A DNA stretch of 26,073 bases from a bacterium (GTDB taxonomy: Bacteria > Hinthialibacterota > Hinthialibacteria > Hinthialibacterales > Hinthialibacteraceae): positions 1 through 26,073 of the forward strand of contig JBHGBC010000082.1 of the NCBI GenBank assembly GCA_041946805.1. Direction: 5' to 3'. The notes under the pieces were generated by a model. It was not told the origin of the DNA, did no database searches, and saw nothing but the letters and a program-made list of their open reading frames with translations. Made by a program: the position numbers and the translations under genes. This document shows, in pieces, positions 1 to 16,242 of the stretch; the first letter of the stretch is position 1; each line of letters begins with the position of its first letter.

Positions 1-880
1 CTGGGTGTCCACCCGGATTAGCGAGTGAATGAAAGGCCTTTTGCACTAGCAGGTACGAACTTGCCGGATGAACCATAAATACTGGATATAGGGGCTGATG
101 GACTTGCTGATTCGTTTGAGGCGTTTTTTCCTGGAGGAGACCGTCCGCCAATCCGCTTCACAAAACGGTGAGGGCCGTTCCTTCACCCGTCACCATGTAA
201 CAAAGATTCATAAATATTTCATTTCTAATATTATTCATAAGGGAAGAAGGAAACCTGCTTCATTATGTAAATTATACTGGAACATCCGCGGAGGAGGAGG
301 AACAGCCTGCCTGGGAACGCCGGCGCGAGACTGCCCAAGGGGCCATCCGCCGGAAATGCGGCTGATAACCATGGCCGGCGCCCAGGCCAGGATGCGGAAG
401 GAGGAAAGGATTGATCCGTCCCATGAATCATTCTTGAGGAACGTAGTCCATCGATTATTCGAGATTCATCCAGCCAATGCGTGTTTTTTTCCTCCGATGG
501 CCGCGCGGCATCCAACCGGGGCGATCAAAGAGGTCCACGTCACCCCCCCGGAAAGGAGTCCGGATGAGGAATTTTTCAGGGACAGCCCTCCATGTTCCCG
601 CTCAGAACGGCCCAGGATTGCATCGCATTATCCCTCCCACAGGCTCCCTTCCCGGATGAACCTCGGTTACGATTCCTCGTTCACGGAAACATTCAATCCA
701 CGATCGATGCGGCAGGCTGCATTTAATTTTACATTTCCAATTTACAATTTAATTATATTTTAACGCATTGATATCATCCATATTGATTTTTTTTATTGTT
801 TTTGCCATTTTTACAAAAGGACGAATTGCACTCCCCAAGGACATTCGGGAGGCGGCCCGATCCCTTAGGATTCAGGATTT

Positions 881-899
881 TGTAAGTGAATTCCTTACA
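881..899. promoter_or_regulatory. Inverted repeat TGTAAG-N7-CTTACA, putative LuxR/NarL-family (GacA/UvrY/RcsB-like) binding site
   Basis: TGTAAG at 881-886 and CTTACA at 894-899 in an AT-rich tract. The GacA-box consensus is TGTAAG-N6-CTTACA, so the spacer is 1 nt longer here. A weaker TTAG..CTAA dyad follows at 905-921. Confidence 0.4.
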
Positions 900-921
900 T
901 TTTTTTAGAAAAAAACCCTAA

Positions 922-950
922 TAGACCAAGGATCATTTAACATGTACATT
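922..950 (+). promoter_or_regulatory. Putative sigma70 promoter
   Basis: TAGACC (922-927), 17-nt spacer, TACATT (945-950); 4/6 match to consensus at each hexamer; lies directly downstream of the palindrome. Confidence 0.4.
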
Positions 951-2357
951 ACTAATTACCAATGAATATGCAATGAGGGTAGATGAGAGAGGTGTCGAAG
1001 CTGATCCTGCAATAGAGCGTATCGGTTGCACCCATTCCACCATCTCCATCCTAAACAACTGCGTTTGTTTCTGTGCGGTTCGATCTAGTTCCATGGCCGG
1101 GTTAGGGAAATCATTCTTTCGACCACCAGGTATGAGAGCTGGGAGGTGGCTTATTTAATCACATCAGGATGATCCCGGGAATCATCCTCCCGGTTGCCCG
1201 AACGGGAATCTCACATGCGGACGGGAATGCCAAGCAGAAAACCGGAAGGCCGGAAGGGGGCCGGGAGGTGTTCCCTCATCGCAAGGAAGTGGAAAGCGGA
1301 GGGGTCCGGCCGGGGAACAAAGAGCCGGCCACGATCGCGGATCCGATAAGTTGGATCGAACCGGCCGGGCGGGAATCATTCGCCGGCCGGACGGTGGCCG
1401 CGGCGCATGGGGCTGTGAACGATGAGTGCGGCGGGAAATAACGGTTGGAGGTTATCCAGGGCTGCACGAGGCGTGGGACAGCCGCATTCCCCAGAGGACC
1501 GCCGCAAACGAACACCCGCGGGCGGCGCCCGGCAATATCCAGAAAAAGGAGGAAACATCGGAAACGGCGCCAGGTGACGGCGGGCGGTTGCAACCGGGCC
1601 AAGCCCTTCTTCCGTTGTCCCCTGTCGTTCCGGCGGAACATGAATCAAAAGTCCCCGGTTTATGCAGGTCCGGTTCTCTCTTCCTTTTCCCGCATTTTTT
1701 CCGAAAAGGGGAGGCGCCTGAGATCGGCCAGGTGCGCGGACGGACCGGGCGGGCGGGAATTCAGCCGAAAGGATTGAAAAACAAGTACATGGTTCGGTAG
1801 GGCAAGGGCGGATTTTTGATCGGTCCGGTCTGTCGGAAGATCCCGCAGCCCCGGCAAGGCGGCTGGAGGCGGCTGATTACCCCAAGCCGGGCGGGCCGGG
1901 TAGATGGAAGCAAGAAAAACGACGGGCAAGAGCTTCCAGGGGCGCAGCGGGATATACCGGTCGGGAAATCCAGAGCAACACGATAAGGGTTCGGCGGGGG
2001 GTCTATTTCATGGAGATAACGGCGAACAATCCACGGCAATCGATTATCCGATTCCTGATTCATAATTAATGTGCTTGAGGGAAGCGCTCCTTTCTTCACG
2101 GATTCCGGATGAAGAAAGCGGGATGCCGGATTTCATCACATAAGATCCCGCACGGAGGGGATCAAAAGGCCGGATGAATCTCCTAGAGGACAGGCTAGGC
2201 CCGTGATTTCCGCCGGATTCGGCGCGATGTTCGAACGGACCAGGGGGTAAGGAAGCACCGATCGCACTCATTTTTCATCCGGTTCGTGAGGGGCGGCAGG
2301 CAATCGCGAACGCGAGGCCTATTCCGAAACAATCTATATCATGATATCGAGGTTATC

Positions 2358-3533
2358 ATGTCCGGTCCACAAACTCTGCAAACACTGAAAAGGTTTCTGA
2401 ATTATGTGCGGATGCGGTTCTTGCTGCGGATCCATTCGGCGCAACAAATCCGCGGCATCATTGAACGGGAACGGTCGCGGTCCGACCGCTTCAGCAGCGA
2501 GTTTTCACTCGTGATGTTCGACTTGGATATCGAGAACGGTCATTATTTGTACATCTGGCATCTGGTCCAAACCTTACATTCCCGCATCCGGTGCTATGAT
2601 GATATTGGATGGTTTGACGGCTGGCACATCGGCGTTGTACTGCCGAACACCTCGTACCGGGAAGCCGTGAGTTTCGCGGAAGAAATAAGTCGCAAGATCA
2701 ATAAGTATGATATTTCATACCTGCGGTATGAAATTTATACTTATCCCGGTCATTGGATCAATAAACATCATTTGGTCACGAAATATCCCGCCCCGATGGA
2801 TAAAACGTTTGAAAAGCGTTCCTCGTTCATTCAGATTGACGCGGATTCCTCTCACGTCCCGCGGTTCGTCGAATCCGCGACGATCGCGTTTGCGGAAGCC
2901 ACGGTTCTTCCCAATCAAATGCTCTTGCAGCCGATTCCCATTTGGAAACGCTGCATGGATATACTCGTCGCGCTCACGCTGCTCATCCTGTTCTCGCCGG
3001 TGATGATCGGGGCGGCGGTTTTGATCAAACTGACATCGAAGGGACCCATTTTTTATGTGCAAAAAAGGACCGGATATAACTTAAAGCGCTTCAATTTTTA
3101 CAAATTCCGGTCCATGTACATGGGGGCCGATCTGCTGGTCAAGGATCTGGAAGCCGTGAATGAATGGAATGGCAAGGCTCCCCTGGTCCTGATCAAAAAC
3201 GACCCCCGGATCACGCCGGTGGGGAAATGGCTGCGGAAGACGAGCGTGGACGAACTGCCCCAATTATTCAACGTATTAAAGGGTGATTTATCCTTGATCG
3301 GCCCGCGGGCGCAATCGGCTTATCCGTCGCAATACGATTTATGGCAGTTGCGCCGCTATTCGGTCCGGCCGGGCGTGGCGTGCCGCTGGCAAGCGGAACG
3401 GCGCGGGGAAACGGATTTTGTCGCGTGGATGCGAAGCGATCTGCGCTACACGAGAAAAATCTCCCTCCGGGCGGATCTGAAATTGTTTTACCATATACTC
3501 GTCAAGGTATTGAGCTGCAAGGGTTCCTGTTGA
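2358..3533 (+). CDS. Priming phosphoglycosyl transferase (Bac_transf, WcaJ/CpsE/PglC-like) with N-terminal degenerate GGDEF-like domain
   Basis: C-terminal KRCMDI-hydrophobic helix-GPIFYVQKRTG, YKFRSM, DPRITPVGKWLRKTSVDELPQLFNVLKGDLSLIGPR. N-terminal RERSRSDRF-SLVMFDLD...RCYD-IGWFDGWHIGVVLPNT...A..FAEEI is GGDEF-fold-like. Start moved to ATG 2358 (GAGG at 2349-2352). Confidence 0.9.
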   Translation: MSGPQTLQTLKRFLNYVRMRFLLRIHSAQQIRGIIERERSRSDRFSSEFSLVMFDLDIENGHYLYIWHLVQTLHSRIRCYDDIGWFDGWHIGVVLPNTSYREAVSFAEEISRKINKYDISYLRYEIYTYPGHWINKHHLVTKYPAPMDKTFEKRSSFIQIDADSSHVPRFVESATIAFAEATVLPNQMLLQPIPIWKRCMDILVALTLLILFSPVMIGAAVLIKLTSKGPIFYVQKRTGYNLKRFNFYKFRSMYMGADLLVKDLEAVNEWNGKAPLVLIKNDPRITPVGKWLRKTSVDELPQLFNVLKGDLSLIGPRAQSAYPSQYDLWQLRRYSVRPGVACRWQAERRGETDFVAWMRSDLRYTRKISLRADLKLFYHILVKVLSCKGSC

Positions 3534-3558
3534 TGATTCACCATTGTTGATCATAGAA

Positions 3559-4875
3559 ATGTCCAAGATGAATCTTCCCGAAAGGATCAGAATCTTTCTG
3601 ACGGAGACCGCGCCGGTCGATGGATCGCTTTCCATACTGGATCAGGCCGTATGCAGCGCGACCACTTTTCTGACGGGGGTGCTCATCGCCAATACGGCCG
3701 GCACAAGCGAATTGGGGTATTACACGTTAATATTGAGCATCATCATGCTGGGGGGCGAGCTGCAAAACTCCCTGATCATCATCCCCTACACGGTTTTGTA
3801 TCCGCAGACCGCGGGAAGGGACCGGCCGGATTTCTTGAACAACGCCGTCCTCCAGCAGTTTATCCTCATCTTTTTTTTATTGGCTTTCATCGCCCTCGGC
3901 CATGCGGGCCTGCCGTTCACCTGCGGTTCCCTGAACATCCATTACATTCTGGTGAGCCTGGCGGTGGCCCTGCCCGGCATGATGATCCGGCAGTTCGCCC
4001 GCCTGGTCTCGTTTTCCCACTTGCGGCTTTGGACCACGCTGATCCTGGATGCAAGCACTGGGATCCTGCAAATCGGCGGCCTCTGCGGATTGATGTATTT
4101 CGGTCGGCTGGGCTCCGCCTTTCACGCCTTTTGCGTCATCGGCGCCGCCTGCACTCTCAGCGGCGTCTTTTGGATTCTCCGGCAAGACGTGTTCGTCCGG
4201 CTCCATTGGATGCATGCCTTCCGCACCATCCAGGACAACTGGAAATACTCCAAATGGCTTGTGAACACCATCCCGGTCGCCTATCTGCGGGGACAGCTGG
4301 GGATCTGGATGTTGACGATCTTCTACGACTCCTATCATACGGGACTTTTTTCGGCGTGTTTCGCCATCACCTCTATCGGCAACATGTTTGTTCTGGGACT
4401 GGGGAACTTCATCGGATCCATGTCATGCCACAAATATGACAAAAACGATGTCGTGCCCATGTTAAAATTCATCATTTATATTACGATCTTTATCGGTGTG
4501 TTTACCGGCGCCTTTTGCGGGATCATGGTGATTTGGGGTTCCACGATCGTGAGTTTCGTGTACGGCAGCGAATACAGCGGATTGGGGATGGCGATTTCCG
4601 TCCTCGCCGTCAGCAGTTTCGTCTGGTCGTTGTCGACGCCGACCTACCGCGGCCTGATCGCGATCAACCAATCCCAAGTCATCATGATGACCGAATTGTT
4701 GATCCTGTGCGTGAATATCGTCTTGGGATACTGGCTGATCCTGGTTCACGGCGTTTCCGGAGCGGCCTGGACGGTCATGGCCGGCAACTCCGTGGGTTCG
4801 GTCTTCCAAATCAGCCTGTTTTTCAAGCATATTCAACATTGCAAGAAAAATTCCTGCGTGGCCCACCCGGCCTGA
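3559..4875 (+). CDS. Wzx-like oligosaccharide flippase / polysaccharide biosynthesis membrane protein (MOP superfamily)
   Basis: About 12 hydrophobic segments, SILDQAVCSATTFLTGVLIA..SELGYY N-terminus, VYGSEY loop, GVSGAAW last hairpin; follows the sugar transferase. Start uncertain (3544/3559/3568). Confidence 0.8.
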   Translation: MSKMNLPERIRIFLTETAPVDGSLSILDQAVCSATTFLTGVLIANTAGTSELGYYTLILSIIMLGGELQNSLIIIPYTVLYPQTAGRDRPDFLNNAVLQQFILIFFLLAFIALGHAGLPFTCGSLNIHYILVSLAVALPGMMIRQFARLVSFSHLRLWTTLILDASTGILQIGGLCGLMYFGRLGSAFHAFCVIGAACTLSGVFWILRQDVFVRLHWMHAFRTIQDNWKYSKWLVNTIPVAYLRGQLGIWMLTIFYDSYHTGLFSACFAITSIGNMFVLGLGNFIGSMSCHKYDKNDVVPMLKFIIYITIFIGVFTGAFCGIMVIWGSTIVSFVYGSEYSGLGMAISVLAVSSFVWSLSTPTYRGLIAINQSQVIMMTELLILCVNIVLGYWLILVHGVSGAAWTVMAGNSVGSVFQISLFFKHIQHCKKNSCVAHPA

Positions 4876-5165
4876 CGGTCCGGGTGGAAGGCGGGGCCCG
4901 GGCGGGATGGTTCAATCCCGCGGCGGAACGGGTGATCCCGAAAGGAGGGAAGCCGGGGGCGCGGCGGCCACGGGAAGCGGCCCGGCCGCGAAGACGCCGG
5001 CGTCCGCTTCCCCTCAAGACAGCCATCGATCAGGAGGAGAAAGCGAAGCCTATCGCAGCCGGCGGGGATTATCGAAAGGGGCGCCAATGCCTTTGTGAGG
5101 ATTTCAATCAACTTATCCAGGGAATGGATCCGGATGATGCGGTAAGGTGCGGTCAAGTGGCCAGA

Positions 5166-7109
5166 ATGCATGAGCAACCATTCTTTTTTGGGGAAGCCGG
5201 GAAAAAACTCTACGGAGTGATCTACCCGCCGGCGGCCGGCCGTTGGATCAATGGCGGGTGGGTCCTCTGTGCGCCGTACGGCATCGAGCGCTTCAACTCC
5301 CGGCGGTTCCTGGTGAAATGGTCGCGGGAATTGTCCCAGTTGGGATACTGGGTTTTGCGGTTCGACTACCGGGGGCGCGGGGACAGCACGGGCCGGTTCG
5401 AAGATTACACCATGGAGGACCACGTGGAAGACATCCACGCCGCGGTCCGGGAATTGGAGAGAAAGGCCGGCGTCCCCTGCCGGGGGCTTTGCGGTTTGCG
5501 GTTGGGAGCCACCTTGGCGGCGGAAACCGTCCGGCGGACCGGCGGGAACCCCATGTTGGTGTTGTGGGAACCGGTCGTGCAGGGGAAAGAATACATCAAC
5601 GAGTTGCTCCGGGCGGCGATGGCGGGCGAGATGATCCAAGTGGGGGAGAAAGGCCGGACGCGGGTCCAACTGCGCGCGGATTTGGAGAACAATCAGGACG
5701 TCGTGGTCCAAGGATGCTTCTTGACCCGGAAGATGTATCATTCCCTCTCCGCGGTGGACTTGTTGTGCCAGCCGCGGCCGGGAAAGGGGCCGATCCTGAT
5801 CCTGAACATTCTGGGCAATCCGAATCAAGCCCCTAGCACGATTTTCGGTCTTCTGCATAAAAAATACGCAAAGGGAGGGGAAGTCTCGCTGGAAACGTGC
5901 CAGGCTCCGGTTCCCTGGGTCGGAGACCGGCAATACGTAACCGACACGGAGGCCATTTTCCGCCACACCGTCTCCTGGATCCTGGACCATGACACTCATT
6001 CCACTTCCGGCAATCCCATCCCGTGGGAACCGGGTGCCAAACCGCCGGCCGGGAACTCGAAGGGGATTCACGTGGTTTCCGCGCATAACGGATCGCTTCG
6101 GAAGGACGACGAACGCCTGGTGCGTTTTCTGGTCAAGGGGATCCCGATCTGGGGGATCTTGAAAGAGCCGGCGCCGGGGGATCCGAAGAAACCCCTGGTG
6201 ATCATGCAGGGGCGCCGTTCCCTCTACCGGAGCCTGGCGGGCAAACTGGCGGAAAAGGGATGGGCTTCGCTGTGTTTCGATCCGCGCGGTTTCGGGGAAA
6301 GCCTGGGAGATTGGGATTTCACGACGGAAGGCGAACTGTTTTACGCGATGGAGACCGGCCTGATGTACGAGGATTGCGTGGGGGCGGTCCATTTCGCGGA
6401 ACGGAAACTCGGGTATTCGTCCTGTGTGCTGATCGGATTATGCGGCGACGCCATCACCGCGGTGCTGGCGGCGGCCAATGATCCCCGGATCCGGGGAATC
6501 GTTCCCCTCGAACTGCCTTTCCGGCAGAGTTGCAAAAACTACTACGAGGGCGCGGCGGACTACTTGGTGTTCCTGCTCTCCTCCAAACTGTACAAGCCTC
6601 ACCTCAAGTCGTCTCTGCGGGTCAAGATCTGGAAGCGGATTAAACCGCTGATCTTCAAGTGGATCCATTGCATGCGCGCGGGGTTGTCGCAGGTGTCCGG
6701 CCTGTATTCTCCCACGAGCCACCTCCGGTTGCTGCAAAAGAAGTTCGGGCCGCGGCTGAACAAACACCTGTTTCACGCATTCCAGAACGACTTGCACAAA
6801 AACCTGCCGGTTCTCTGCCTCTTCGGCAGCACCAATAATTTCACCGATTTTTCCACGGTTCTGGAATTCATCGGCCGGGACCAAAACGATATTAATTTAT
6901 CCCTCCACTATCACGTGATTCCCAAGGCGGATCATGCGTTTTCCCATCCCAACCATACCGAGGCCATGATTGAGGTCATCCTCGCGTGGTTGGAAAAAAC
7001 GATCGCGCAGGCCACTCCGGCGCCTCTGGTGTATCACCCGGAAAGGGAACGGCCCCAGGTCGATTCCTCCCTCGAGAAGGGGAATCCCGGAACGTCCGGA
7101 TTGCCCTGA
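5166..7109 (+). CDS. Two-domain alpha/beta hydrolase: exosortase-A-system hydrolase 2-like domain fused to hydrolase 1-like domain
   Basis: Domain 1: PFFF..LYGVIYPP, APYGIERFNSRR, VLRFDYRGRGDSTG, GLRLGA, LVLWEPVVQGKEY. Domain 2: ERLVRF, CFDPRGFGESLG, IGLCGDA, DPRIRGIV, ADHAFS. Start taken at ATG 5166 (5124 possible); the 4515-5165 ORF extension is low-complexity and overlaps the flippase. Confidence 0.8.
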   Translation: MHEQPFFFGEAGKKLYGVIYPPAAGRWINGGWVLCAPYGIERFNSRRFLVKWSRELSQLGYWVLRFDYRGRGDSTGRFEDYTMEDHVEDIHAAVRELERKAGVPCRGLCGLRLGATLAAETVRRTGGNPMLVLWEPVVQGKEYINELLRAAMAGEMIQVGEKGRTRVQLRADLENNQDVVVQGCFLTRKMYHSLSAVDLLCQPRPGKGPILILNILGNPNQAPSTIFGLLHKKYAKGGEVSLETCQAPVPWVGDRQYVTDTEAIFRHTVSWILDHDTHSTSGNPIPWEPGAKPPAGNSKGIHVVSAHNGSLRKDDERLVRFLVKGIPIWGILKEPAPGDPKKPLVIMQGRRSLYRSLAGKLAEKGWASLCFDPRGFGESLGDWDFTTEGELFYAMETGLMYEDCVGAVHFAERKLGYSSCVLIGLCGDAITAVLAAANDPRIRGIVPLELPFRQSCKNYYEGAADYLVFLLSSKLYKPHLKSSLRVKIWKRIKPLIFKWIHCMRAGLSQVSGLYSPTSHLRLLQKKFGPRLNKHLFHAFQNDLHKNLPVLCLFGSTNNFTDFSTVLEFIGRDQNDINLSLHYHVIPKADHAFSHPNHTEAMIEVILAWLEKTIAQATPAPLVYHPERERPQVDSSLEKGNPGTSGLP

Positions 7110-7274
7110 CTGGCGGACACGGATTGTCGCAAGTCGGCGGGCAGATCCCATTCCTCGGACAGGGGCGGGCGGCAGGGGAAGCGCGAGCGCTCTTTCCCTC
7201 CCCGCCTGGCGCACATCGCTCTCCGATCTCCCTTCCCGGCTGATCAAAACGCTTCCCGCGGATCTCCCCCCGCT

Positions 7275-12560: not shown

Positions 12561-12921
12561 AATCCTGATCTTCTCCCCGAGGGAAAAGGGATTTCGGGCT
12601 CTCTCCCACCCGCCGAAACGCGGTCCGGCCACACTCCCGGAAAAAAGAAAACACGTATCGGATGAGCCAAATATCCTGTCCTCCCTGAAGACCTGTTCTC
12701 AAGCACAGCCACTGCCTTGAAAAACTGTTCTTGAAAATATATTGACTTTCCAATTCATCCCCTTGATTATAGTCAGAGGATCAAAATCGGCGTATAAAGT
12801 CATTGGAACATATAGATTCCGGTTCGGTGAGGAAGGGCCGGCTCAATCCAGTCCGTCTCACCATTCCGGGATACCCCGGTGTCACGGACAAAGGGGATTC
12901 CGCGCGAACCGGGAGATGAGG

Positions 12922-12941
12922 GCAAGCCGGATCCGGCTTGC
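12922..12941. promoter_or_regulatory. Perfect 20-bp palindrome upstream of the transporter gene (operator or RNA hairpin)
   Basis: GCAAGCCGGATCCGGCTTGC equals its own reverse complement; it ends 46 nt before ATG 12988. Function is unproven. Confidence 0.4.
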
Positions 12942-12987
12942 GGCCGGGATTCCCGCGGCTGACCATAAACCGATAAATAAACAAAAT

Positions 12988-15900
12988 ATGCGAAAACTGT
13001 TGCTGCAAGTTTTCAAGATCTATGAAGGGGAGGGGTACAAGGTTTTCCTGTTCGCTCTCGCGGGAGCCCTTCTGCATGCGGGCATTTCCATTGGATCGGT
13101 GGCGTCCGACGCCTTGTTCTTGACCCGCCTGGGCGCGGAGAGACTATCGTATATCTATTTTGTTTTGCCCGGCATCATGATCGCCGTGGCCGCGCCGCTC
13201 TCGTATCTGACCGGCAAATGGGGAGCCCACCGGATCCAGTTCCTCTCGTTCTTCGCTTTGTTGGGCGGCGGGGCGGTGATCACGCTGACATTGGCCCTGA
13301 TCAGCAGCCCCTCCAGCCATGCCGATTGGCTGTATTTCGGGATCAAGTTATATGCCTGCCTGTGGTCCATTCTCGGTTTCACCGTGTTTTGGAACTACGT
13401 GGACGCCTATTTCGATATTCTCAGCGCCAAGCGGCTGTTTCCCGTGCTCGGCGGGGCCACCACGTTCGGAGCGATGGCCGGCGGCTGGCTGGTCATGGTA
13501 TTCATGGACTACGGCTGGAACGTCAACGCCTTGTTCGTGATCGGCGGAATCACCGCCCTCCCGGCCTGCATCCCCGTGGCCGCGGCCTGCCGGTCCCTTC
13601 CCCCCAGCCGCGGATACGATGAGGAGGAACTCTCTTTTTCGCACCAAATGCTCCAACTGGCCCAGACGTACCGCCAATCCCGTTATGTGATCTTCCTGAC
13701 CCTCTCCACGTTCCTGATCATGATCGTCATGAATTTCTGCGAATTTCAGTACATGCGGATCTTCAATCAGCGGACGATCAGCGACACGGCGCTGGCCGCC
13801 TTGTTCGGCCGCCTGTTCCTGGTGGTCAACGTTTTCAATACCGTTTTCACTCTTTTCGTCTTCAACCGGATGATCTTCACCCTGGGCGTGCGCAACACCT
13901 CCCTGATCCAGCCCGTGGCCTATCTGGTGTCATTCGCGGCCTACGTGTTCCTGGGCGGATATCCCGGCCCGATGTACAACGCCGCGATTTTCGGTTTCTT
14001 CGTCCTGCAAGGCATTCACGCGGCCATGGAGGACAACAACTGGAATTTCATGCTGAATCCGGTTCCCCAGCGGGTGCGGCCGCCGGTGCGGGCCTTTTTG
14101 GAAGGCGTGGTGGATCCCCTGGGCGGGGCCGCCGCCGGATTTTTCCTGATCCTGATGAACCAGCATTGGCAATGGTCCCACACCCAGGTTTCCCTTTTCG
14201 GGACGGGGCTTTCCGGCTTGTTGTTGATCGCGGTGTTAGGCAAACGCCATTATTACATGAACACCCTCATCGAAAACCTCCGCGCCGAATGGTTGGATTT
14301 TTCCACCGCGGATCAAGAGATCTTCCCCGAACTGGAAAACGAAGGGCGGGAGGCGCTGGCGGCCATCAGCCAAGGCGATAACCTGGACGATGCGCGGCTG
14401 GCCTGTTGGATTCTCTGGAAAGTGGACCGTCTCCGGGCGGCGCCGTACATACTGGATTTACTCGAACGGTGCCCCCTCGAAAGCCGGCCGCCGGTTCTGG
14501 ACCTGGTTTCCGGAATCCTGGCGGAGCGGGACAGCGAAATCACCCGGCTGGTCATCGCCTGGATGATGGACCATCCCGCCGCCGTGAGTTCCGCCATGAT
14601 TCAACAACTCGGCCCCCACCGCCTGGTGCACGACGCCGCCGCCTCCCTCCTGATGCAATCCCCCGATCCCAACGAACGCGGCGCGGCCTCCACCGTCCTC
14701 TGGCACAGCTGGGACATCGACAACAACGCCCGGGCCATGGCGGCCACCCGCACCCTTCTGGAGGGGAATCCGGAAGAGCGGAAGGCCGGCATCCGAACCC
14801 TGGCCACCACCGGCCAATGCCATTACGCCCATTACCTCATCCCCTTTATTCAGGAAGACGATCCGGAAGTGCGCCGGACGGCCAAATGGGCGATTTGCCG
14901 CCTGGCGGACGAGGCCTCCAGCCGCGATCTGGGCACGGTCCTGGAATTCGCGCGCGAGGAAGATCCGGAAATCCGCGGCTTGGCCTTGCAAGCCCTCTCC
15001 CGGATCGGGGATTCCCAGAGCATCGCCCCCCTCCTGGGAATGGCGGACGCCTTTTCCCCCCACGAGCAGCGCCGCGTGTATCAGGTCATCATGGACATCG
15101 GCCTGCGCAGCATCCCCGCCATCGCGGGAGTGGTGCGGGATCCACACTATCCCTATGCCGGCCGGCGCATCGCCGCGCGCGCCATCGCCCGGCTGGCGTT
15201 TCCCCAATTGCTCTCGGCCATCCCCACGATCATCCAGCAAGAAATCCGCCGGGCTTATCAAATCCTCTGCTTTCACTCCGTCCTGGCAAACGTGAACTTC
15301 CCTTCCCATGGGATTCGGGTCCTATCGCGGTACTACCGGGACGAACAACAGGCCACGCTGGAGTTCATCCTGGAAATCCTGGCCCTGGGGGGGCAGATCC
15401 CCAGCCACGAGATGATCGCCTCGTCGCTGCGATCCAACAATCCCAAAATCCGCGGCGACGCGATCGAAACCCTCGAACAGGCCGTCAGCCGTCCCACCTT
15501 CCGCGCGCTTCTTCCCTTGGTGGACGGCCGCCCCACGGAAGACAAGATCCGCTTTTACTTCAAGCGCTTTCGCGCCGGAAAACTCTCCGCCTCCCAAGTG
15601 GTCGACCTCGCCTGGTCCAGCCAGGACGAGTTGGAACGGGCGGCCGCCGCGCAGACGTTGTGGGATTTGACCGGCGCCCCGCCGCACGCCCTGGGTGACG
15701 ATGATCCGCTCTCCCGGCCGAAGCCGGAGGTTTTGAACCGGATCACGGCAGGCTTGGACGGCGCCCCGCCCCTCCTCAAAAACCTCCTGTTCTCCATCCT
15801 GTTCCGGGAAGCCGGACGGGATGTTCCGGACACCTTGATCGAGCGGATCGCGCTGCTGGGCGAAAACGGGCTGTTCAGCGGCATCGGCACGCGGGAACTG

Positions 15901-16242
15901 GCGGTCCTGGCCGGGGGAATCACGCTCGTGTCTTATCCCGCCGGCGCTTATATCTATATGGAAGGCGATCCCGTGGACGCGGTCTATTGGATCCGGGAGG
16001 GTGAAGTGTTGCTGCGATCGCCGGCCCGGGTGGAAACCCGGTCCGCCGGCCAGAACTTCGGGGAAGAACTGCTGTTCGGAACGCCCCGCCGGCTCCAGGA
16101 CGCGTCCGCGGACCCCATGACCGGATACCGCCTGGACCGGGAGACGTTCCAGCACAATGCCCAGACCTATTCGCGGATTGCGATCGCCCTCTGGGAGCAC
16201 GCGATGCAACATCCGGGAATCCGGAAGGCGCACGATGGATAA
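12988..16242 (+). CDS. NTT/TLC-like MFS transporter fused to HEAT repeats and a C-terminal cyclic-nucleotide-binding domain
   Basis: About 12 TM segments with DALFLTRLGAERL and FWNYVDAYFDILSAKRLFPVLGG (TLC-type motif); HEAT-like DDPEVRRTAKWAI, EDPEIRGLALQALSRIGD, NNPKIRGDAIETLE; cNMP domain LIERIALL..LFS..YPAGAYIYMEGDPVDAVYWIREGEV..FGE..PRR. Start moved to ATG 12988. Confidence 0.88.
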   Translation: MRKLLLQVFKIYEGEGYKVFLFALAGALLHAGISIGSVASDALFLTRLGAERLSYIYFVLPGIMIAVAAPLSYLTGKWGAHRIQFLSFFALLGGGAVITLTLALISSPSSHADWLYFGIKLYACLWSILGFTVFWNYVDAYFDILSAKRLFPVLGGATTFGAMAGGWLVMVFMDYGWNVNALFVIGGITALPACIPVAAACRSLPPSRGYDEEELSFSHQMLQLAQTYRQSRYVIFLTLSTFLIMIVMNFCEFQYMRIFNQRTISDTALAALFGRLFLVVNVFNTVFTLFVFNRMIFTLGVRNTSLIQPVAYLVSFAAYVFLGGYPGPMYNAAIFGFFVLQGIHAAMEDNNWNFMLNPVPQRVRPPVRAFLEGVVDPLGGAAAGFFLILMNQHWQWSHTQVSLFGTGLSGLLLIAVLGKRHYYMNTLIENLRAEWLDFSTADQEIFPELENEGREALAAISQGDNLDDARLACWILWKVDRLRAAPYILDLLERCPLESRPPVLDLVSGILAERDSEITRLVIAWMMDHPAAVSSAMIQQLGPHRLVHDAAASLLMQSPDPNERGAASTVLWHSWDIDNNARAMAATRTLLEGNPEERKAGIRTLATTGQCHYAHYLIPFIQEDDPEVRRTAKWAICRLADEASSRDLGTVLEFAREEDPEIRGLALQALSRIGDSQSIAPLLGMADAFSPHEQRRVYQVIMDIGLRSIPAIAGVVRDPHYPYAGRRIAARAIARLAFPQLLSAIPTIIQQEIRRAYQILCFHSVLANVNFPSHGIRVLSRYYRDEQQATLEFILEILALGGQIPSHEMIASSLRSNNPKIRGDAIETLEQAVSRPTFRALLPLVDGRPTEDKIRFYFKRFRAGKLSASQVVDLAWSSQDELERAAAAQTLWDLTGAPPHALGDDDPLSRPKPEVLNRITAGLDGAPPLLKNLLFSILFREAGRDVPDTLIERIALLGENGLFSGIGTRELAVLAGGITLVSYPAGAYIYMEGDPVDAVYWIREGEVLLRSPARVETRSAGQNFGEELLFGTPRRLQDASADPMTGYRLDRETFQHNAQTYSRIAIALWEHAMQHPGIRKAHDG

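Follow-up and report, generated by a model that had tools for sequence, protein, structure and literature searches.

Why would an enzyme that initiates polysaccharide synthesis carry a dead GGDEF domain, and could this domain place the enzyme under the control of cyclic di-GMP (c-di-GMP)? The question is raised by a gene (2358..3533, + strand) in a stretch of 26,073 nucleotides (nt) from a bacterium of the Hinthialibacteraceae, referred to here as the window (positions 1 to 26,073 of contig JBHGBC010000082.1, assembly GCA_041946805.1, forward strand). The gene is an open reading frame (ORF) of 391 amino acids (aa), whose translation, P0001, fuses an N-terminal GGDEF-like domain (N-domain) to a C-terminal phosphoglycosyl transferase. 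A reading made from the sequence alone, i.e., the sequence-only reading, had proposed that the transferase is gated by c-di-GMP, bound at an intact RxxD inhibitory site (I-site) of a catalytically dead GGDEF domain. The motifs on which this proposal was built, namely SLVMFDLD (residues 50-57), RCYD, DGWHI, VVLPNT (93-98), A..FAEEI (103-110) and VDELPQ (297-302), all lie in P0001 where they had been placed, and we regard the architecture of the protein, its GGDEF homology and its catalytic death as close to certain.

The N-domain (approximately residues 25-130; 2430..2747, +) matches GGDEF domains both by profile and by fold. When the Protein Data Bank (PDB) was searched with P0001 alone using HMMER, 3ign, a c-di-GMP-bound GGDEF structure, was found at E = 1.5e-4, and a profile of the family's N-domains recovered 3ign at 1.8e-12, GcbC (5euh) at 4.7e-11, WspR at 2.7e-8 and PleD at 0.05; a full-length profile of 64 sequences gave the same GGDEF picture. 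The AlphaFold2 (AF2) model of the N-domain, which is confident across residues 20-130 (predicted local distance difference test, pLDDT, ~87-97), runs helix 0, strand 1, helix 2, strands 2-3, helix 3 and strand 4, and a Foldseek search with the P0001 model returned GGDEF structures at all of ranks 5-49 as listed (E = 3e-6 to 4e-4, with a probability of 1.00 to many of them). Profile and Foldseek results thus bear out the GGDEF fold that had been proposed. Pfam model PF00990 gave no match in P0001 at E<=10, the GGDEF model TIGR00254 matched it with 24 bits (E = 2.6e-5), under the cut-off of 37.4, and only 14 of the 64 aligned homologues reached PF00990 at E<=0.01. Since Pfam does not call the N-domain in P0001, a Pfam-based survey could easily miss it. 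A word-based search with residues 20-135 alone had the query as its sole match, because the N-domain is too diverged for shared 5-mers.

The same alignments bear on the motif at the heart of the proposal. The RxxD motif (R78-C-Y-D81; 2589..2600, +) occupies the I-site position, aligned to the RxxD of 3ign, 5euh and WspR, and exactly five residues separate D81 from D87, the first residue of the DGWHI (D87-I91; 2616..2630, +) that replaces GG[DE]EF and aligns to the GGEEF of 3ign. Because HMMER aligns IRCYDDIGWFDGWHIGVVLPNT of P0001 column for column to IRQSDSAGRYGGEEFGIILPET of c-di-GMP-bound 3ign, the RxxD-x5-GGDEF spacing that had been pointed out reflects homology to the RxxD and GGEEF of that structure; a chance match was considered and rejected, as the alignments place the motif in the homologous column. 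The N-domain is also a shortened version of its relatives: matches to GGDEF models end at approximately position 110-120 of 161-168, the AF2 model holds no elements after strand 4 and is disordered from residue 137 on, and alignment gaps show that the loop after strand 1, which in GGDEF domains holds guanine-binding residues, has fewer residues than its counterpart in the aligned GGDEF chains.

To what extent these features are shared by the family was read from two alignments. The first (A1) comprised P0001 and 63 of 120 listed proteins (query included) that cover at least 88% of the query length, at 31-41% identity to it; 56 lower-coverage proteins were left out, eight of which carry a more divergent copy of the N-domain. 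P0001 itself is a singleton at 90% identity, its closest relatives being ~40% identical. The second (A2), a profile of 23 of the 64 N-domains, was run over 161 proteins (154 stored and 7 locus ORFs), of which 113 match at E<=1e-3; residues were counted in the 111 domains, from 105 proteins, that score at least 60 bits. Nine weaker domain matches were dropped: seven in ordinary GGDEF proteins (P0149-P0154), one in a fused protein at locus L021 (53.7 bits, with RLSD present) and one in a 145-aa stand-alone protein at locus L020 (21.8 bits).

GG[DE]EF is found in none of the 111 domains, in agreement with the destroyed active site that DGWHI had suggested, and the equivalent of the metal-binding Asp of strand 1 is kept in 18; on these grounds the N-domain is predicted to be incapable of cyclase activity. 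RxxD conservation across homologues, which had been put forward as a check, held up well, with R78 present in 109 domains and D81 in all 111. Similarly conserved is a charged cluster at the end of helix 0 (E38-R-x-R41-x-D43-R44; 2469..2489, +), with E38 found in 109 domains, R41 in 105, D43 in 100 and R44 in 111. By our own count from PleD numbering, R41 presumably falls at the position of PleD's secondary I-site arginine, which we take as a lead. Three further residues, G84 (111/111), Y129 (103/111) and P130 (108/111), have no counterpart in ordinary GGDEF domains. The last two belong to the Y-T-Y-P with which the domain ends (residues 127-130; 2736..2747), a near-invariant aromatic-x-Tyr-Pro across the family; given the frequent Wzz and bacterial tyrosine kinase (BY-kinase)-like neighbors, it is conceivable, as pure speculation, that this motif holds a phosphorylation site.

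The company that the N-domain keeps proved to be narrow. Among longer proteins, the N-domain profile gave 41 matches at E<=1e-6. The top 35, each of at least 92 bits, carry the transferase domain PF02397 without exception; after a gap in scores come the remaining six, at no more than 58 bits, which are ordinary multi-domain GGDEF proteins. By these matches, the N-domain occurs solely with this transferase family. Moreover, the partnership takes several forms. The source genome (6.7 Mb, 96.8% complete) encodes eight PF02397 proteins, four of them associated with an N-domain: two as fusions, one being the window gene and the other a 402-aa paralogue (L016, 6920..8128), and two as split pairs, one in which a 184-aa domain protein (L018, 6997..7551, -) lies directly upstream of a 230-aa transferase (6308..7000, -) with a 4-nt overlap, and one in which a domain protein (L017, 5768..6532) is followed by a transferase (6442..7212). 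The remaining four are either large transferases or of a different build. Beyond these, six proteins (P0002-P0005, P0013 and P0024) are tandem forms with two full copies of the N-domain each (92-118 bits per copy), and in the four whose N-termini were inspected (P0002, P0005, P0013 and P0024) the RxxD was read in the first copy. The coexistence of fused, split and tandem forms argues for the N-domain being a module that works with the transferase, probably in pairs.

It had been suggested that similar fusions may exist in databases, and indeed public databases hold many members of the family, one of which is named by its source as a 'GGDEF domain-containing protein'. Of 35 genomes of the phylum, nine have matches extending into the family-specific end of the profile (position 108 or beyond), and most other matches end near position 95-101, i.e., are ordinary GGDEF domains. 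In a tree of the transferase domain (FastTree, 130 sequences, 196 columns), domain-bearing transferases do not form a single clean clade, the largest pure clade holding 33 of 78, while 44 large transferases form a clade of their own (support 0.81); the two split-form transferases are mutual nearest neighbors, with fused forms next.

The C-terminal half of P0001 is a monotopic phosphoglycosyl transferase catalytic domain (PF02397; 2946..3512, +), matched by Pfam at E = 3e-55 and 187 bits against a 27-bit cut-off, over residues 197-385 and model positions 1-178 of 179. Small monotopic phosphoglycosyl transferases put the first sugar-phosphate on undecaprenyl phosphate, using an Asp-Glu dyad that is catalytic in PglC. 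The corresponding dyad of P0001 (Asp298-Glu299; 3249..3254, +), which the sequence-only reading had picked out in VDELPQ, is invariant in all 64 homologues. So is P214, which together with Ser213 breaks the predicted re-entrant membrane helix (residues 195-226; 2940..3035, +) into model helices 195-211 and 213-226; in total, 23 positions of this half are invariant in the 64 homologues (D298, E299, P214 and 20 more). The NCBIfam EPS, WcaJ and WbaP transferase models match in their C-terminal catalytic parts only, and PglC and WbaP are the best structural and sequence matches (profile E = 1.7e-58 to 2.8e-66; for PglC 8e37, Foldseek E = 1.6e-13 and a target template modeling (TM) score of 0.80). 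One deviation is GPRA, in P0001 and its closest paralogue, versus GPRP in more than 90% of the family. PglC of Campylobacter and WbaP of Salmonella, both of solved structure, resemble P0001 in the catalytic domain, in the Asp-Glu dyad and in a re-entrant helix with Ser-Pro. They differ in their additions: PglC has no extra domain, and WbaP, in place of a GGDEF-like domain, has a CoA-binding-like one as well as four transmembrane helices. Judged by its residues, this half looks like an ordinary small monotopic phosphoglycosyl transferase and is predicted to be active.

The two halves are joined by a linker that is disordered in the model (residues 137-180; 2766..2897, +; pLDDT <50) and varies in length across the family, such that proteins of ~400 aa spread over 778 alignment columns; the model as a whole has a mean pLDDT of 84 and a predicted TM score (pTM) of 0.77. 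A complex prediction of the N-domain (residues 1-140) with the transferase (181-391), using 64-row alignments, scored 0.02 against a mark of 0.32, which speaks neither for nor against docking. As for the start of the protein, several homologues have the same 19 residues ahead of the first aligned column (residue 20), in accord with ATG 2358, and GAGG lies 6 nt 5' of this ATG. GTG 2286 was considered as an alternative start and rejected, as the homologues favor ATG 2358.

These properties led us to a model in which the N-domain would be an old, shortened and catalytically dead descendant of GGDEF domains, residing in the cytoplasm and serving this transferase family as its dedicated regulatory module. 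Either in trans or in tandem, two of these domains would share a bridging ligand, c-di-GMP or a close guanine nucleotide, which would sit between the RxxD loop of one and the helix-0 Arg cluster of its partner, as in PleD and WspR under product inhibition. Their pairing would then switch the transferase, thereby gating the entry of the lipid carrier into a Wzx-type polysaccharide pathway. The steps of this model do not all carry the same weight. That the N-domain regulates is probable, because of its conservation and its exclusive partnership with the transferase. That c-di-GMP or a close guanine nucleotide bridges two N-domains of P0001 through RxxD and the helix-0 arginines and so switches the transferase is a tentative proposal, to which we give the lower odds because of Glu109, the residue discussed below. 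We are slightly more doubtful still that the ligand in P0001 is c-di-GMP itself, and equally hesitant about the specific arrangement in which an intercalated c-di-GMP dimer bridges two minimal GGDEF-derived domains to switch a priming transferase.

What favors nucleotide bridging is the selectivity of retention, i.e., the loss of GG[DE]EF from every counted domain and of the metal-binding Asp from all but 18 of 111, set against the keeping of RxxD and the helix-0 Arg. Several observations weigh against it. RxxD and the helix-0 Arg are common in ordinary GGDEF domains and are thus partly inherited, and the conserved Arg, Asp and Glu residues might serve instead in a network of structural salt bridges or in contacts with another protein. 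The counts themselves are somewhat circular, as the rows were picked with a profile containing the same residues, a caveat to be set beside the mere 31-41% identity of the family members to P0001. Everything that follows strand 4 in a GGDEF domain is absent from the model. Above all, the position of the third basic I-site residue, in helix 3, is Glu109 in P0001. Across the 111 domains this column holds D in 42, R in 17, S in 11, A in 11 and E in 7, i.e., Asp is the family consensus, versus R in 3ign, H in GcbC (5euh) and K in WspR. In PelD of Pseudomonas aeruginosa, the equivalent R402, which pairs with RxxD, is described as 'absolutely required' (excerpts of PMC8461298), and in PelD of Bacillus cereus R363A, D366A and R395A each abolish c-di-GMP binding as measured by isothermal titration calorimetry (excerpts of PMC7112168). 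Of the 'intact RxxD I-site' that had been claimed, the RxxD stands, and the third Arg does not: by alignment, the family retains two of the three primary I-site positions, with the charge of the third usually reversed, so that 'intact I-site' is too strong a label for P0001.

The lack of a conserved third Arg is accommodated more readily if the N-domain needs no ligand at all, acting instead as a pairing or adaptor module that dimerizes the otherwise monomeric small transferase or docks it to a Wzz/BY-kinase co-polymerase, to the flippase or to the next glycosyltransferase, with the conserved charged residues making up a structural network or protein interface. This we consider about as likely as c-di-GMP bridging, which is to say possible at rather less than even odds. 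Tandem and split forms fit it equally well, three of six loci (L017, L020 and L021, the others being the window, L016 and L018) have genes for Wzz/GNVR and a P-loop ATPase immediately upstream of the module, and G84, Y129 and P130, as family-specific invariants, point to constraints unrelated to c-di-GMP; moreover, large transferases of the superfamily dimerize via a non-catalytic domain, as reported in structural work on WbaP and touched on in excerpts of PMC12802240. Yet a pairing module offers no specific reason for the I-site residues to be kept at 98-100% while the other nucleotide machinery decayed. A different ligand at the RxxD and Arg cluster, such as pGpG, (p)ppGpp, another cyclic dinucleotide, GTP or GDP, or a UDP-sugar or UMP acting in feedback, appears unlikely. 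An Arg and an Asp at i and i+3 beside an Arg cluster would make a generic guanine- or phosphate-binding arrangement, the acidic third position suggests a non-canonical pocket, a REC-GGDEF-like protein of the genome, with a GGDDF signature, might make a different product, and the PDB holds PleD with ppGpp or pppGpp (by entry title); still, the ancestral GTP/substrate site is destroyed. Finally, the loss of the catalytic motifs and the C-terminal third is what a decaying remnant without present function would display, but such a remnant would hardly retain invariant residues at 31-41% identity to P0001, yield a confident model, or persist both as a separate, apparently translationally coupled gene and as tandem duplicates, making decay very improbable.

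A nucleotide-sensing role for the N-domain presupposes a source of the nucleotide, and the genome was found to encode one REC-PAS-GGDEF-EAL protein of 694 aa with its RAGD and GGDEF intact, from which the organism is predicted to be able to make and break c-di-GMP with a minimal kit. PilZ had no match in the source genome, a draft in which absence is not proof; degenerate GGDEF domains could therefore be its c-di-GMP receptors. The genome also encodes the GGDDF protein mentioned above (C261; L002, 977..2047, -), in which a REC domain precedes a GGDEF-like part matching only the first 90 positions of PF00990, and, as its fifth degenerate GGDEF, a 530-aa protein joining a TackOD1 zinc ribbon (E = 1.7e-54) to a degenerate GGDEF with RNTD...GGNEI (C280; L003, 550..2142, +). 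The gene of the latter is directly upstream of, and overlaps, a gene for a multi-pass, GT2 synthase-like protein with QRWRW (L003, 2111..3415, +), rendering it a candidate for a second dead-GGDEF receptor beside a polysaccharide enzyme in the same genome. One cyclase together with several RxxD-bearing dead GGDEF domains beside polysaccharide enzymes is what a receptor role predicts, though it is not proof of one.

The sequence-only reading had further assigned the transferase to a Wzx-type pathway. This stands for the family, as relatives lie in Wzx/Wzy-type clusters, while for the window itself it is plausible only, since the flippase call comes from language-model features. Specifically, the gene that follows (3544..4875, +) encodes a multi-pass membrane protein of 443 aa that matched no Pfam or NCBIfam family, and whose ESM Atlas feature neighbors fall in Polysacc_synt, Polysacc_synt_3 and MatE clusters at 0.99, which is a lead to a probable Wzx/MOP-type flippase. 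Next comes a double alpha/beta-hydrolase protein (4878..7109, +; Hydrolase_4) that resembles exosortase-A-associated hydrolases 2 and 1 (TIGR03101, E = 4e-37, and TIGR03100, E = 7e-22, both below cut-off), and the remaining genes of the window encode glycoside hydrolases, oxidoreductases and sensors. In the split locus L017, the order is Wzz/GNVR, two P-loop ATPases, the domain protein, the transferase, a Gfo/Idh/MocA oxidoreductase, Wzy_C, a methyltransferase and Polysacc_synt. The fused locus L021 runs Wzz, a ParA-like ATPase, an insertion sequence, the fused transferase, Polysacc_synt_3, a pyruvyl transferase and a GT2 protein, and the fused locus L020 runs the 145-aa stand-alone domain-like protein, Wzz/GNVR, the fused transferase, an oxidoreductase, a GT2 protein and a deacetylase.

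Upstream of the transferase gene, ~1.6 kb (764..2357) is without a convincing ORF and is unique in the genome; its GC content is 0.60 at 1001-2000, versus 0.47-0.51 in the flanks. Rfam families were found there neither at gathering score (searched over the window) nor at E<=1 (700-2400), and hence no c-di-GMP riboswitch. Across 1..4000, i.e., the transferase gene and its neighbors, GC content is 0.47-0.54, against ~0.56-0.67 in the rest of the window, and in genome G016, of the same genus, the best match is closest to the paralogue C272 (by N-domain alignment and tree distance). The low GC content, this match and the lack of any relative above ~41% identity suggest that the window gene is a divergent or acquired copy. 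Elsewhere in the window, 12742..16242 (+) encodes an 1166-aa protein whose membrane part is MFS-like by a weak match; it also has HEAT repeats and, at the C terminus, a cyclic-nucleotide-binding domain.

How does P0001 compare with receptors that are already known? PssE of Listeria and YdaK of Bacillus subtilis reportedly are dead GGDEF proteins that keep the I-site and activate a glycosyltransferase complex. To our knowledge, none of the PssE-, YdaK- or BcsE-type receptors has been reported on a phosphoglycosyl transferase; unlike P0001, these proteins are stand-alone partners of processive GT2 synthases. The likeness to BcsE lies in a dead GGDEF domain whose I-site serves to activate a glycosyltransferase complex (excerpts of PMC8461298). 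A precedent is PelD of P. aeruginosa and B. cereus, a degenerate GGDEF receptor that binds c-di-GMP at RxxD, which likewise has a dead GGDEF-type domain, keeps its RxxD and is dedicated to an exopolysaccharide machine (excerpts of PMC7112168 and PMC8461298). Unlike P0001, PelD is a membrane protein of its own that includes a GAF domain; it serves the synthase-dependent Pel system, and it needs a third Arg (R402; R395 in B. cereus) where P0001 has Glu109. The domain of P0001 is shortened, and the family's domain is attached to, or encoded beside, the transferase that primes synthesis in Wzx/Wzy-type clusters. The PDB sequences that the family profile matched at E<=1 did not include PelD.

On the side of the transferase, a precedent is Myxococcus xanthus EpsW, a response regulator that activates the initiating phosphoglycosyl transferase EpsZ, which resembles our proposal in placing a small signaling domain in post-translational control of the priming enzyme of a Wzx/Wzy pathway (excerpts of PMC12802240). 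It differs in that a phosphorylated receiver acts in trans on a large, WbaP-type enzyme, without a GGDEF-type domain or nucleotide ligand. Small transferases fused to regulatory domains were found in a 2021 network study (O'Toole, Imperiali & Allen, PNAS), as cited in excerpts of PMC12802240. Our literature search, conducted at the level of titles and the beginnings of abstracts, found no paper on a fusion of a GGDEF-like domain with a phosphoglycosyl transferase, and the 2021 network study may list the class. What is added here are the split and tandem forms, the exclusive partnership with the transferase and the caveat of the third I-site residue.

Post-translational control of Wzx/Wzy pathways is incompletely understood, and c-di-GMP control is well documented for synthase-dependent systems (excerpts of PMC12802240); in a 2021 review of c-di-GMP control of exopolysaccharides, the term Wzx does not occur (PMC8461298). 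If the proposed bridging by c-di-GMP is true, a second messenger would be seen for the first time to act post-translationally on the step that initiates Wzx/Wzy-type pathways, and would do so via a receptor module that spans several phyla and is not recognized by current domain databases. Point mutants of R78, D81, R41 and R44, along with the split, single and tandem versions that exist in nature, make the idea directly testable. Should the ligand prove to be something other than c-di-GMP, the N-domain would still represent a regulatory domain that lacks annotation and is tied to one enzyme family alone; and if it is a sensor, whether built into the priming enzyme or encoded in its operon, it would exert control at the very point where the scarce lipid carrier gets committed.

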